Under the pieces are notes generated by a model. That model did no database searches. It had not been told where the DNA came from and saw nothing but the letters and a program-made list of their open reading frames with translations. This document shows positions 37,382 through 60,445 of a stretch of DNA of 64,000 bases, piece after piece. This stretch comes from Verrucomicrobiia bacterium (GTDB taxonomy: Bacteria > Verrucomicrobiota > Verrucomicrobiia > Limisphaerales > Pedosphaeraceae), in NCBI GenBank assembly GCA_036268055.1, contig DATAUW010000002.1, positions 28,124 to 92,123 of the forward strand, in the 5' to 3' direction. The number at the start of each line of letters is the position of its first letter. The stretch's first letter is position 1. The position numbers and the translations under genes were made by a program.

Positions 37382-37639
37382 ATGACCGCGACCGAACAGA
37401 CGATTTTGCAAACGCTGGTGGAACTCGATTCCGCCGTGCGCTCCATGCCCACGGCAAATCCCAAGCCGAACCTTTTGCCAATCTTTTCGCGGTTGGACGC
37501 CTTGACGAACCAGCTCCCACGCGGCACCGATGCGCAACTTCTTCATTATCTGCACAAGAAAAGTTACGAGAAGGCGCGTTTGTTTTTGTCCGGCCGTGAT
37601 GCCGAAAATGCCGCGGGAAATTGCCGGCACGTTGACTGA
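37382..37639 (+). CDS. Hypothetical small protein (about 85 aa) translationally coupled to mnmE
   Basis: An ORF ending with a TGATG overlap onto the mnmE start codon. No recognised domain. It could alternatively be a 5' leader. Confidence 0.3.
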   Translation: MTATEQTILQTLVELDSAVRSMPTANPKPNLLPIFSRLDALTNQLPRGTDAQLLHYLHKKSYEKARLFLSGRDAENAAGNCRHVD

Positions 37640-39012
37640 TGCTTGACGATACCATCGCCGCAATCGCAACGCCGCTGGGCGAGGGCGGCCTGGCGGTCAT
37701 TCGCCTTTCAGGAAAGCACGCGCTCGCCATCGCCGATAAAAGTTTCGTCGCCTTGGGAAAATCCGCCGTCGCGCCGAGCGCCGCGCCCACGCACACCCTT
37801 CATTACGGCAAAGTCGTCCGCCACGGTCGCGATGTGGATGAGGCGATGCTCGCGGTGATGCGCGCGCCGCGCACGCTTACGCGCGAAGACGTGGTGGAGA
37901 TCACCTGCCACGGCGGATTGCTTCCAGCGCGATCGGTGCTGGACACTGTTTTAGAAAACGGCGCGCGCCTCGCCGAACCCGGTGAATTCACGCGCCGCGC
38001 TTTTCTCAACGGGCGGATTGATCTCACGCAGGCGGAGGCGGTCAATGATTTAATTTCCGCACGCACGGAACTCGCGCTGGCCGCCGCGAATGAACAACTG
38101 GCCGGAAAACTATCGCAACGTATTAATCTATTGCGCGATGATTTGGTGAAGACGCTGGCGCACGTTGAAGCGCACATTGATTTTCCCGACGAAGACATTG
38201 CGCCCGACACCAAGGGAAAATTAATTTTACGCCTTGAGCATGGCGTGAAATTCATGGACGAACTTTTGCGCACGGCGAATGAAGGCCAGATTTTGCGCCG
38301 TGGCATTCGCGCGGCCATTGTTGGCCGGCCCAACGCGGGCAAGTCGAGTTTGTTAAATCAACTGCTTGGCCACGACCGCGCCATCGTTTCGCCGATTGCC
38401 GGGACGACGCGCGACACGATTGAGGAGACGGCGAATATTCGCGGACTGCCGGTGATTTTCGTGGACACGGCGGGCTTGCGCGAAGCGGGCGACGAGCTTG
38501 AGGCGGAAGGCATCCGGCGCAGCCGCGAATCGTTCGCACGCGCGGAATTTATTTTGCAGGTGTTGGACGCGTCGGAGCCATTGAGCGCCGCTGATGAAAA
38601 ATATCTTGCCGAATTTTCCGGCAAGCCGCGCATTCTCGTGCGCAATAAAATGGATTTGCCGATGCGATTGGTTTTGCCGGAGAGTGTTGGCGGTTTGCCG
38701 GTCGTGGAGGTGTGTTGCCTCACGGGGAAGGGGATCGAGGCGTTGAAAGATGCGATTAAGGAATTAGTTTGGGCGGGCGAAATCCGCGCGGAGATGTTGC
38801 AGATGATGATCAACTCGCGGCATCAGGAAGCGTTAACGCGCGCGCGCGCCGGGGCACAGCGGACGATTGACGCGCTGCGGTCGGACCATACGCTTGAACT
38901 TGCGGCAATGGATCTGCGCATCGCGACGAATGCGGTGGGAGAAATCGTCGGCAAAACGACTACGGAAGATTTGCTTGATTCCATCTTCAGCCAGTTTTGT
39001 ATTGGGAAATGA
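37639..39012 (+). CDS. mnmE: tRNA modification GTPase MnmE (TrmE)
   Basis: 457 aa. G-domain motifs (GRPNAGKSSLLN, DTAG). A C-terminal CIGK tetrapeptide. Confidence 0.95.
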   Translation: MLDDTIAAIATPLGEGGLAVIRLSGKHALAIADKSFVALGKSAVAPSAAPTHTLHYGKVVRHGRDVDEAMLAVMRAPRTLTREDVVEITCHGGLLPARSVLDTVLENGARLAEPGEFTRRAFLNGRIDLTQAEAVNDLISARTELALAAANEQLAGKLSQRINLLRDDLVKTLAHVEAHIDFPDEDIAPDTKGKLILRLEHGVKFMDELLRTANEGQILRRGIRAAIVGRPNAGKSSLLNQLLGHDRAIVSPIAGTTRDTIEETANIRGLPVIFVDTAGLREAGDELEAEGIRRSRESFARAEFILQVLDASEPLSAADEKYLAEFSGKPRILVRNKMDLPMRLVLPESVGGLPVVEVCCLTGKGIEALKDAIKELVWAGEIRAEMLQMMINSRHQEALTRARAGAQRTIDALRSDHTLELAAMDLRIATNAVGEIVGKTTTEDLLDSIFSQFCIGK

Positions 39013-39077: not shown

Positions 39078-39335
39078 TTGCATTGGATGACTTGGAAACA
39101 AATCTTTTTTGTAGTCACCGGTTGCGCGCTGGCCGGAATGGTTATGGGCGGTTTGTTTGGCGTGGCAGCCGGCAAACTGGCACCGGAGTTTTTTCGGCAT
39201 ATTATTATTTGGCAGGACGTTGAGCCGGTGGGATTTGCGGCTTTTTGCGGCGCGACGATTGGTATTTTGCTGGGCGGTGGCCTGGGATGTTTTGGCGTCG
39301 TATTACAGACGATCGCTCAGTGGCGGAAAAAATAG
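39078..39335 (+). CDS. Hypothetical small membrane protein (2 TM, Gly-rich)
   Basis: 85-aa hydrophobic ORF. No domain recognised. Confidence 0.35.
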   Translation: MHWMTWKQIFFVVTGCALAGMVMGGLFGVAAGKLAPEFFRHIIIWQDVEPVGFAAFCGATIGILLGGGLGCFGVVLQTIAQWRKK

Positions 39336-39471
39336 GGAGCGCTCCTTCGGAGCTTTTTTGGATGTCGTAATTCACCGGCTTTTCTTCCGACGAAATCCTT
39401 TCATTACACACTTGCCCCGAAGGCTTGGTTAGCGCAATATCCCCGACCCGTGATTGTTCACGGGTTGTCGA

Positions 39472-40347
39472 ATGAAGAATAAATTACGCTTTGGGTTGCC
39501 CAAAGGCAGCTTGCAGGACGCCACGATCGAGAAGATGGCGAAGGCCGGATTTAATATCCAGGTCAGCAGCCGCTCGTACGTGCCGTATGTGGATGATGAG
39601 GAATTGGAAATCCGGCTGATTCGTGCGCAGGAAATCAGCCGCTATGTCGAGCACGGTTATTTGGATTGCGGCATCACCGGCCACGATTGGATTCAGGAAA
39701 ATCATTCGGACGTCCATGAAGTCGGTGAATTTAAATTCAGCAAAATGACCCGCCAAGCCGCCCGCTGGGTGCTGGCGGTGCCGGAGAATTCGCCGATCAA
39801 GTCAGTGAAAGATTTGAAGGGCAAACGCATCGCGACCGAGGTCGTGAATCTCACCAAAAGATACCTGCGCAAGCATGGCGTGAAGGCCGAAGTGGAGTTT
39901 TCCTGGGGCGCGACGGAATTCAAGGCGCATGAGTTGGTGGACGCGATTGTTGAGTTGACGGAGACGGGTTCTTCGTTGCGCGCGAATAAGTTGCGCATTG
40001 TGGACACGCTGCTTTCCTCGACGCCGCGGCTCATTTCCAACCACGAAGCGTGGAAGAATAAATGGAAGCGCAAGAAGATTGAGACGATGGCGATGCTCCT
40101 GCGTGGGGCGTTGGAAGCCGAGGTCAAGGTGGGCCTCAAGATGAACATCGCCGAGAAAAATGTGGCAAAGTTGTTGCAAAGTTTGCCATCTCTGCGTAAT
40201 CCAACGGTGTCCAACCTCAGTCTTAAAGGCTGGGTGGCCATCGAAACGATCATAGATGAACACGTCGTCCGCGAATTGATCCCGCTGCTGAAAGCCGCGG
40301 GCGCGGAAGGCATCATCGAATATCCTTTGAATAAAGTAGTTTACTGA
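39472..40347 (+). CDS. hisG: ATP phosphoribosyltransferase (long form)
   Basis: [16 protein letters not shown]... together with the C-terminal regulatory domain. The start at 39472 ([14 protein letters not shown]) is preferred over the track start at 39454. Confidence 0.9.
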
Positions 40348-40362
40348 AACGCAAATTAATAT

Positions 40363-40464
40363 ATGGGTTCACTGAAAAAACGCCGCAAGTCGAAAATCAA
40401 TAAACATAAACGCCGCAAGCAGCTTCGGGCCAACCGCCACAAGAAGCGCACCTGGCAGAAGTAA
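40363..40464 (+). CDS. Small basic protein, bS22-like (AURKAIP1/COX24-family ribosomal protein homologue)
   Basis: Manual translation gives [33 protein letters not shown] (33 aa). This closely resembles the mycobacterial bS22 pattern MGSxxKKRRK..K.HRKLLR.TR.QRR. It is below the ORF-track cut-off. Confidence 0.5.
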
Positions 40465-40547
40465 CCGCCGTTTTGGCGAAGTGCTTTTTGAGTCCGCGCA
40501 ACTTTTCGCGAGAGTTGCGCGGACGCTTAAAAGAGTTACCTTACCGC

Positions 40548-42245
40548 ATGCTGTGTGGTCGCAATCGCGGGTTGTTGCTGCTGCTGGCCCTAAGCTTTGT
40601 GCTGCTGGCCGGTTGCGTTACGCCGTCTAACCGCGCCACCAGTCTCGCTTCCGATCAAACAACGGTCGCTCCACCGTTGCCGGAAGTGGATGATCACCTC
40701 GTTCAGGCTTATGCGCATTACGCGCAGGGCATGATCTATGACATGGACGAACAGCCGGACCTCGCTTTGGATGAATTGGCGAAGGCTGCCGCCGAGGATC
40801 CTTCCAACACCGATTTAGTGCTGGATCTTTCCCGCCGTTATCTTCAACTGAAACAACTCGACCGCGCACAGGATTTGTTGACTCGCGCCACGGCGGTTCC
40901 CGGAGCTTCGGGAGTTCTCTTTGCGCGCCTGGCGATGGTTGATTCCGCGCTGGACAAGGGGCCGCAAGCGGTGGATGCCTGCGCGACGGCCATCAAGCGC
41001 TCCCCTGATTCGATCGAGGGTTATCGTATTTTATTTTTCATCCAACTGCAAAAAGGCCAGCACAAGGATGCGCTGAAAACTTTGCAGCAGGCGGCCAAAG
41101 TTCCCGATACGAGCGCGGAATTCGATCTCGATTTGGTGGAGCTTTTCGTGACGCTCGAACATCAGGCGCCGGCGGAAACGGTGTCGGCCGGAAAAACACC
41201 GCTGGAAGTTTTGCATCGCGCGGCCGCTTTGCAACCGGACAACGCGCAACTGCGCATGAAACTGGGCGACAGTTACAGCGCGCTTGGAGACATCACCAAC
41301 GCCACGCAGGTTTATCTTGATCTCGTGGATGCCTATAATGATCTGCCCGCCGCGCGCGCGGTCGTTCACGACAAGCTCGCGCGGATTTATTTGCGCGAAA
41401 AGGATTACACGAATGCCACCGTCCAGCTCAAGGCCATTGTCCAGGACGATCCAGCGAATGCGCAAGCGTATTATCTGCTCGGCAGTTTGGCGGATGACCA
41501 GCGCCAGTTGCCCGAAGCCGTGGATTATTTTCAGAAGACGCTGATCTTGAGCGAGGATTTTGAGGAAGCATATTACGACCTAGCGCGGGTGCAAATTGAT
41601 ATTAATGATCCCAAGGCCGCACTGGAAACATTGGCGAAGGCGCATACGAAATTTCAACTGGGTTTCGTGCCGGAAGTCCTGACCGCGCTCGCGTACGAGA
41701 AACAGAAAGATTTCACCAACGCGATCAATCATTTCACCTCGGCGGAAGTCATCGCAAAAGCTTCCGACCCGAAGCGGTTGAACAGCGGATTTTATTTTGA
41801 CCAGGGCGCGGCGTATGAACGCGGCGGGGATTATGAAGAGGCCGAGCGTTGCTTTCAGAAAAGTTTGGAGCTTTCGCCGGATTCCGCTGAAGCGTTGAAT
41901 TACCTTGGTTACATGTGGGCTGACCGCGGCGTCAAACTGGAAAAGGCGCACGACCTCATCGAGAAAGCCGTCAGGCTCGAGCCGAAGAGTCCCGCATATC
42001 TCGATAGCCTCGGCTGGGTGCTTTACAAACTGAATCGTCCGCAGGAAGCCTTGCCGCAACTGCAAAAGGCCATCGAACTTTCCGACGAGCCGGACCCCAC
42101 GCTTTACGATCATCTCGGCGATATTTATGCGCTGCTCAAGCAGACTGACAAGGCGCGCGAAGCGTGGACAAAATCCCTTTCGCTCGATCCCAATACCGAG
42201 GTGCGCAAAAAACTGAACGACGTCGTCAGCAAGCCCAGCCAATGA
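40548..42245 (+). CDS. TPR-repeat lipoprotein
   Basis: A lipoprotein-like signal (LLLLALSFVLLAGC) followed by multiple TPR motifs (e.g. AYYDLARVQ, ALNYLGYMWADRG). Confidence 0.7.
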   Translation: MLCGRNRGLLLLLALSFVLLAGCVTPSNRATSLASDQTTVAPPLPEVDDHLVQAYAHYAQGMIYDMDEQPDLALDELAKAAAEDPSNTDLVLDLSRRYLQLKQLDRAQDLLTRATAVPGASGVLFARLAMVDSALDKGPQAVDACATAIKRSPDSIEGYRILFFIQLQKGQHKDALKTLQQAAKVPDTSAEFDLDLVELFVTLEHQAPAETVSAGKTPLEVLHRAAALQPDNAQLRMKLGDSYSALGDITNATQVYLDLVDAYNDLPAARAVVHDKLARIYLREKDYTNATVQLKAIVQDDPANAQAYYLLGSLADDQRQLPEAVDYFQKTLILSEDFEEAYYDLARVQIDINDPKAALETLAKAHTKFQLGFVPEVLTALAYEKQKDFTNAINHFTSAEVIAKASDPKRLNSGFYFDQGAAYERGGDYEEAERCFQKSLELSPDSAEALNYLGYMWADRGVKLEKAHDLIEKAVRLEPKSPAYLDSLGWVLYKLNRPQEALPQLQKAIELSDEPDPTLYDHLGDIYALLKQTDKAREAWTKSLSLDPNTEVRKKLNDVVSKPSQ

Positions 42246-50596: not shown

Positions 50597-50775
50597 TTTC
50601 CCCTAACTGAAGTTAGGGATTAATGAGAAGTGTTGGGCAAGTAGGTGAGGGTTGGTTCCATAAGCGGATTTCTTTCGTCCCTTCGGGACTTGATTTGCAA
50701 TGGACGCAAACCCAGCAATAAATTGCTGGGCAAATATCTGCCGTCCCTGCGGGACTTCGGACGGGGAGCGTCAGC
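50597..50775 (+). repeat. Structured ~180-nt repeat element, copy 1 (candidate ncRNA or MITE). It contains a 7-bp-stem/UGAA-loop hairpin, two gtccc-N3/4-gggac hairpins, and the 20-nt perfect palindrome cccagcaataaattgctggg.
   Basis: About 80% identical to 60270-60445. Both copies lie in convergent intergenic spacers. Confidence 0.55.
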
Positions 50776-60269: not shown

Positions 60270-60445
60270 TTTCCCCCGGCTGAAGCCGGGGGTTAATGAG
60301 AAGCGATTGGTTTTTGCGGGCGATGGAAGAGTGGCGGCGGAATTTCTTTCGTCCCTGCGGGACTTAATTTATGACGGATGGGAACCCAGCAATAAATTGC
60401 TGGGCTAAGTTCTGTCGTCCCTGAGGGGACTTTGGACGGCCGAGC
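60270..60445 (+). repeat. Structured ~180-nt repeat element, copy 2 (candidate ncRNA or MITE)
   Basis: Paralogue of 50597-50775. The 5' hairpin ccccggc-tgaa-gccgggg retains pairing through 3 compensatory changes relative to copy 1. Confidence 0.55.

Follow-up and report, generated by a model that had tools for sequence, protein, structure and literature searches.

Bacteria have, in the small-subunit ribosomal protein bS22, a counterpart to the C-terminal domain of mitochondrial mS38/AURKAIP1/Cox24. In the solved structures bS22 is a bent basic helix that lies next to the decoding centre, in a 16S rRNA pocket of h44 and h45 together with h2 and h27; its C-terminus contacts 23S rRNA (PMC7797042, PMC10618245, PMC12123416). 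The mitoribosomal protein mS38, which has an analogue in eL41 of cytosolic ribosomes, occupies the same h44/h45 pocket in published structures (PMC10618245). In Mycobacterium smegmatis, bS22 is dispensable for growth; its Lys16 is in contact with the backbone of h44 and reduces sensitivity to aminoglycosides (10.1101/2023.03.31.535098). Outside the Actinobacteria the protein has been published for the Bacteroidota (PMC7797042, PMC12123416) and for Borrelia (PMC10618245), with cryo-EM of the F. johnsoniae, P. gingivalis and Borrelia ribosomes. The Borrelia authors expected bS22 in further bacteria (PMC10618245), and convergence of bS22 and mS38 has been suggested (PMC12123416). A literature search returned no paper on bS22 or its ribosome structure in Verrucomicrobiota/PVC bacteria, and none on the phylum-wide distribution of bS22.

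The DNA analysed here, a stretch of 64,000 nucleotides from a Verrucomicrobiia bacterium (hereafter the window), carries a small open reading frame (sORF) at 40363..40464 (+). It runs from ATG to TAA over 33 codons and codes for a basic peptide of the bS22 / AURKAIP1-COX24 family, with 10 Lys and 7 Arg among its 33 residues (17/33), a pI of ~12 and a mass of 4.2 kDa. A first-pass annotation of the DNA had described an Arg/Lys-rich ORF of 33 aa here, between hisG and a TPR lipoprotein gene. Our translation is identical to its string and the placement is right: hisG (39469..40347, +) ends 15 nt before the sORF, and the TPR lipoprotein gene (40549..42245, +), a conserved downstream neighbour, follows it. 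The sORF is not beside other ribosomal genes; neither a second copy of it nor any rRNA was found in the window. Two antisense ORFs, 40356-40451 and 40397-40501 (both -), were rejected as by-products of the conserved + frame.

An exact-peptide look-up found the identical peptide in 380 blocks of the public collection, on 231 contigs. The outer neighbours differ among these contigs and the hisG-sORF-TPR core is constant, while the sORF DNA lies 6-17 silent substitutions, per 102 nt, from the window copy. This set is biased because it was chosen by the peptide itself. An unbiased test of conservation was wanted, and loci were therefore chosen by hisG similarity alone, yielding 80 loci from different Verrucomicrobiota (GTDB) species. 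The sORF was present in 68 of the 80 and complete in 66. The remaining 12 loci, some of them on short contigs, showed no copy within ~4 kb of hisG; in those genomes the gene may lie elsewhere. All 66 complete copies have an ATG, 33 sense codons and a stop, and at the DNA level 65 different sequences are represented among them. Codon positions 1, 2 and 3 have 12, 5 and 31 variable sites, out of 33 each. Across the same 66 loci pS was 0.656, which is near saturation, pN was 0.045 and dN/dS was ~0.03. Amino-acid identity at these loci was 93.8% for the sORF peptide as compared with 86.4% for HisG, and in this comparison pN was 0.040 for the peptide and 0.095 for HisG, indicating that the peptide is conserved more than HisG. 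We conclude that the sORF is a genuine protein-coding gene under very strong purifying selection. The conservation that the first-pass annotation had proposed to look for in relatives is thus there, in intact form.

Pfam COX24_C (PF08213, AURKAIP1/COX24, DUF1713) was the sole Pfam match of the sORF peptide (E=8.4e-5), a full-length, co-linear match from Met1 in which residues 1-29 of the peptide cover positions 1-29 of the 33 in the profile. At 22.8 bits the window peptide is 0.2 short of the gathering score of 23.0. All 18 family variants matched this profile (18/18; best E=5.6e-7), and a precomputed PF08213 match is carried by most relatives of the peptide, as gathered with a 40-aa over-called relative as the query. 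None of ten composition controls, nine shuffles and the reversed sequence, matched Pfam. When the single peptide was searched against all PDB chains, only bS22/mS38 chains were returned, the best being 7jil_5 (E=0.0035, phmmer). A family profile, built from the 18 sORF variants and run against the whole PDB, likewise matched bS22/mS38 chains only: 7jil_5, the F. johnsoniae bS22, at E=6.4e-5, 9i5v_10 at E=1e-3 and 8fmw_V, the Borrelia bS22, at E=0.027, with mitochondrial mS38 chains ranked after these and mycobacterial bS22 at E ~2. The statistics all rest on a low-complexity peptide of 33 residues. In Smith-Waterman alignment with the F. johnsoniae bS22 this peptide scored 91, as compared with 38.8 +/- 5.6 for its shuffles, of which 0/5000 reached 91. 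Alignments with the 9i5v and Borrelia bS22 and with two mS38 fragments gave the same outcome (0/5000 shuffles reaching the observed score), and 1/5000 reached the score observed with M. smegmatis bS22. At the level of sequence, then, the peptide is homologous to structure-proven bS22, beyond what composition would give. The first-pass annotation had called the ORF bS22-like and a member of the AURKAIP1/COX24 (DUF1713) family, and had held that a lack of any profile match beyond compositional bias would count against this; the family assignment is upheld and the likeness goes beyond composition.

The NCBIfam equivalog NF047430 (ribo_bS22) gave 18.8 bits (E=0.0013) with the window peptide, below its cut-off of 34 bits, and was matched by 16/18 family variants, none better than E=8.8e-4. 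As a control, NF047430 gave 62.6 bits with M. smegmatis bS22, and COX24_C gave 46.2 bits. The structure-proven bS22 of Flavobacterium (7JIL), 9I5V_10 and Borrelia (8FMW) gave no match to NF047430; on COX24_C the F. johnsoniae and Borrelia proteins again gave no match and 9I5V_10 reached 11.7 bits. NF047430 is tuned to Actinobacteria, since mycobacterial bS22 passes it and the other structure-proven bS22 give nothing. Because structure-proven bS22 miss both models, the missed cut-offs are at most weak evidence against bS22 identity, which a miss on NF047430 does not exclude. We conclude that the NF047430 and PF08213 models under-call non-actinobacterial bS22. Among the PDB-derived bS22 tested, only the mycobacterial type passes NF047430 or PF08213.

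Comparison with individual family members placed the window peptide more closely. The best PDB match, F. johnsoniae bS22 (Fjoh_1533; 7JIL chain 5), aligned ungapped from Met1 with 17/29 residues identical, and the two have in common a KKR... block, an HKR-K core and RANRHKK. This protein and the 30-aa chain 9I5V_10 are like the window peptide in size and charge, and the window gene, as is the case in Bacteroidota, has no Shine-Dalgarno sequence in front. The window peptide is 3 residues longer than either, with a C-terminal RTWQK tail, and it starts with MGS where they have MPS or MPN. Ribosome binding has been proven for F. johnsoniae bS22 (PMC7797042); for the window peptide we infer it. The bS22 of M. 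smegmatis and M. tuberculosis (MSMEG_0945 / Rv0550B; e.g. PDB 5O5J, 5O61) also has 33 aa and an MGS start, and shares with the window peptide a basic helix, a Lys16 at the same ungapped position and a COX24_C match, but it is further off, with 14/33 residues identical and a HMMER E of 2-3. Thus the close mycobacterial likeness claimed by the first-pass annotation stands for length and start, whereas the nearest relative is the F. johnsoniae protein. Borrelia burgdorferi bS22 (bb0822; 8FMW chain V) has an HKRKK...NRHKK core in common with the window peptide and is encoded by a tiny gene found outside standard annotation (PMC10618245). Mass spectrometry did not reveal the Borrelia protein in that study (PMC10618245), and peptides of this kind are destroyed by trypsin. 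Borrelia bS22 differs in being 28 aa long, in its GUG start and in having no RTWQK tail. The C-terminal domain of mitoribosomal mS38 / AURKAIP1 / Cox24 belongs to the same Pfam family, PF08213. Eukaryotic mS38-type proteins are 100 to >500 aa long and have long N-terminal parts (10.1101/2023.03.31.535098), whereas the bacterial protein is the bare domain. Judged by these alignments, the window peptide lies between two bS22 sequence types, nearest the Bacteroidota type.

Over 12.1 kb the window is 100% identical to a 715-kb contig from a JGI metagenome (L002, Ga0376694_0000005), in which the sORF is called as a gene, preceded by a protein with Pfam HisG and HisG_C domains and followed by a TPR protein and then DUF2203. 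The hisG gene encodes the long form of ATP phosphoribosyltransferase, and relatives of its product, with up to 91% identity, place the organism among Limisphaerales/Pedosphaera-like MAGs (Verrucomicrobiota). The adjacency of hisG and the sORF is kept in 64/66 relatives, and in two the sORF is parted from hisG. In L052 the hisG adjacency is lost, yet the sORF is still upstream of the conserved TPR-gene start motif. The start of the TPR gene in the window is likely the ATG at 40549, which would give MLCGRNRGLLLLLALSFVLLAGC, with an L-A-G-C lipobox. A sister subfamily of the peptide, with 79% identity, was found on contigs of 63-64% G+C (L091-L094; L091 4001-4123, L094 4001-4198), where the gene is not beside hisG; it follows AddB/AddA-like genes (PDDEXK_1 + UvrD) and precedes a pilus/secretin cluster.

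The spacer that holds the translation initiation region of the sORF (40348..40362, +) is 15 nt long, A-rich and without a Shine-Dalgarno core; among relatives its length ranges from 12 to 152 nt, with a median of 18 nt. A GGAG, GAGG or AGGA core at -20..-3 of the sORF start was found in 0/66 loci. This region is G-poor in the 66 loci, with 39% A as compared with 22% locus-wide. Downstream of the sORF is a G+C-rich hairpin of 15 bp (40492..40524, +), with a fold of -36.8 kcal/mol (z=-4.06; 0/200 shuffles equally stable) and no clear U-tract in the window copy. The 110 nt 3' of the sORF were more stable than their own shuffle in 61/65 relatives; the position of the hairpin is conserved, and often a T-run comes after it, one being present in 44/66. 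On the other side, 5' of hisG, a terminator-like hairpin with a T-run (39341..39353, +) splits a unit of mnmE and a small membrane protein gene from the hisG-sORF unit. A search for sigma-70-like promoters found none in 39300-40800, and an Rfam gathering scan of the window gave no family in or near the sORF. hisG is the probable co-transcription partner of the sORF, and the 40492-40524 hairpin is probably the end of their transcription unit. The short, A-rich, Shine-Dalgarno-free spacer and the conserved 3' hairpin fit a hisG-sORF bicistronic unit with initiation that is either Shine-Dalgarno-independent or coupled. Between mnmE (37639-39012) and hisG is an ORF of 85 aa (39078-39335, +) with two hydrophobic Gly-rich segments; the gene call for it on L002 has 82 aa and no Pfam match, and the 39341-39353 terminator lies directly 3' of it.

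We consider it very probable that the sORF product is the small-subunit ribosomal protein bS22 of these Limisphaerales/Pedosphaera-like Verrucomicrobiota. By analogy with the solved proteins, the ~4.2-kDa peptide of pI 12 would form a bent alpha-helix close to the decoding centre, buried in the 16S pocket that h44/h45 make together with h2 and h27, and its C-terminus would extend to 23S rRNA (H68-H70), adding an intersubunit contact. Lys16 is invariant in the family and aligns without gaps with Lys16 of M. smegmatis bS22; it would stand in place of the mycobacterial residue that contacts the h44 backbone, presumably with the same location and role. hisG and the sORF would be transcribed as a two-gene unit ended by the 40492-40524 hairpin, and the sORF would be translated from the A-rich spacer without a Shine-Dalgarno sequence, or by coupling to hisG.

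It is improbable, in our estimate, that the peptide, though a true COX24_C/bS22 homologue, has no stoichiometric place in the ribosomes of this lineage and is, for example, a general basic peptide that binds RNA or DNA, or an assembly or stress factor. Such a role would suit a gene whose linkage is with hisG and a TPR lipoprotein gene rather than with ribosomal operons, and a family that is not strictly essential, given the dispensability of M. smegmatis bS22 (10.1101/2023.03.31.535098); the ribosome association of the window peptide, moreover, is something that we infer. However, the known bS22 genes likewise lie outside ribosomal operons, and the Borrelia gene had no annotation (PMC10618245). 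All family members that have been located are in the same small-subunit pocket, in four lineages and in mitochondria (PMC7797042, PMC10618245, PMC12123416), and the extreme constraint and fixed length of the peptide fit burial in rRNA. A cis-acting sORF that regulates hisG or the downstream TPR lipoprotein gene by being translated, and not through its product, in the manner of a leader peptide or coupling device, is very unlikely. The position of the sORF, 15 nt past hisG and with a strong hairpin before the TPR gene, could serve such a device, and the arrangement is kept in 64/66 relatives; but the amino acids are conserved beyond those of HisG while synonymous change is saturated, and the cross-phylum homology is to ribosomal proteins. 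The peptide is also kept in an unrelated gene context in the sister lineage, and its occurrence in other contexts argues against a cis-acting leader role. A leader of the his-attenuator type was rejected, as the sORF is downstream of hisG, which is the wrong side, and has only 2 His.

We regard it as highly improbable that the peptide is a small cationic toxin, for instance of type I, or an antimicrobial. The peptide is small and very basic and has a faint match to the YonT type I toxin of NCBIfam (NF047537; E=1.1, 9.5 bits, cut-off 45), but that match is noise, and the peptide lacks a signal peptide as well as any hydrophobic or membrane segment. No antisense RNA and no partner antitoxin came to light, with nothing in this region in the Rfam gathering scan, and the gene, conserved across species as one copy in a fixed place on the chromosome, is unlike mobile toxin loci. 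Next to no probability attaches to a chance intergenic ORF that matches the family through its Lys/Arg composition. Thirty-three codons alone could be random, and the peptide falls just under the Pfam gathering score and under the NCBIfam cut-off; the conservation pattern, with a dN/dS of ~0.03 and three-base periodicity of variation in 66 species, could not be random. With 0/10 composition controls matching Pfam and 0/5000 shuffles reaching the alignment score as well, a chance ORF or compositional artefact was ruled out.

Within the bS22 reading, a further possibility concerns the C-terminal tail. All 18 family variants have R29, T30 and W31, and an R-T-W tail is absent from Bacteroidota, Borrelia and mycobacterial bS22. 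It reaches past the end of the 30-aa Bacteroidota proteins and, speculatively, might make a lineage-specific contact. The window subtype matches the mitochondrial/actinobacterial profile of Pfam, and its own profile matches the Pfam-silent Flavobacterium bS22; the Bacteroidota type and the actinobacterial/mitochondrial type are thereby linked by sequence. Such a bridge would favour common descent over the suggested convergence (PMC12123416). We therefore offer only tentatively, and hold to be rather doubtful, the proposal that this is a distinct Verrucomicrobiota bS22 subtype whose R-T-W tail contacts the 50S subunit in a lineage-specific manner and which bridges bS22 and mS38 as products of common descent.

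In GenBank the identical protein (e.g. HEX3797294.1) is named 'AURKAIP1/COX24 domain-containing protein [Verrucomicrobiia bacterium]', and close variants of the peptide bear the same family name. The vaguer name follows from the failure of the models to recognize non-actinobacterial bS22. The sORF is thus already known as an annotation and is unsurprising as biology. The first-pass annotation had termed the gene unannotated, which the raw window does not allow one to judge; publicly it is both called and named. Nor is it a gene that callers routinely miss, as had been supposed: it is widely called, though often with an over-extended N-terminus. The taxonomic interest that had been attached to its presence outside the Actinobacteria is small, because bS22 has been published in the Bacteroidota and Borrelia and GenBank already names Verrucomicrobiota proteins in this way. 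Representatives of the 50%-identity clusters of this family (P0001-P0150) are mostly over-extended calls of 40-153 aa, in which the conserved 33 residues are mostly C-terminal and a few run on beyond the C-terminal end. In the public collection the sister subfamily does not occur as the bare 33-aa peptide. From the over-extended representatives and the missing bare sister form it follows that start-codon miscalling is systematic for this gene.

The practical value of the finding is small. The sORF is a real gene of 33 codons that annotations should retain, starting from its true ATG, and it lends comparative support to bS22 being widespread beyond the phyla with solved ribosomes. As bS22 lies beside the aminoglycoside site of h44, the aminoglycoside sensitivity of the lineage could be influenced by whether the protein is present.

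Two further observations were made in the window and its relatives. The Acido-Lenti-1 RNA motif (RF01687), named after Acidobacteria and Lentisphaerae, occurs twice in this Verrucomicrobiota DNA, at 50711-50756 and 60385-60431 (both +), with 47.9 and 46.4 bits against a gathering score of 37. Each copy is part of a longer repeat of ~140 nt, with 87% identity extending past the 46-nt motif. Among the relatives, MAGs with a Pedosphaera-like hisG carry the titles of other taxa (L018, L027, L038, L039, L040, L054, L057, L067, L070, L072, L075, L087, L088 and L089), namely Akkermansia muciniphila, Akkermansia sp., Bifidobacteriaceae, Bifidobacterium sp., Chitinophaga pinensis, Pseudomonadales, Dongiaceae, Methylomirabilota and proteobacterium. 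Their hisG stands at 84-88% identity and most of them also carry the sORF; the taxonomic labels of these MAG records are probably wrong.
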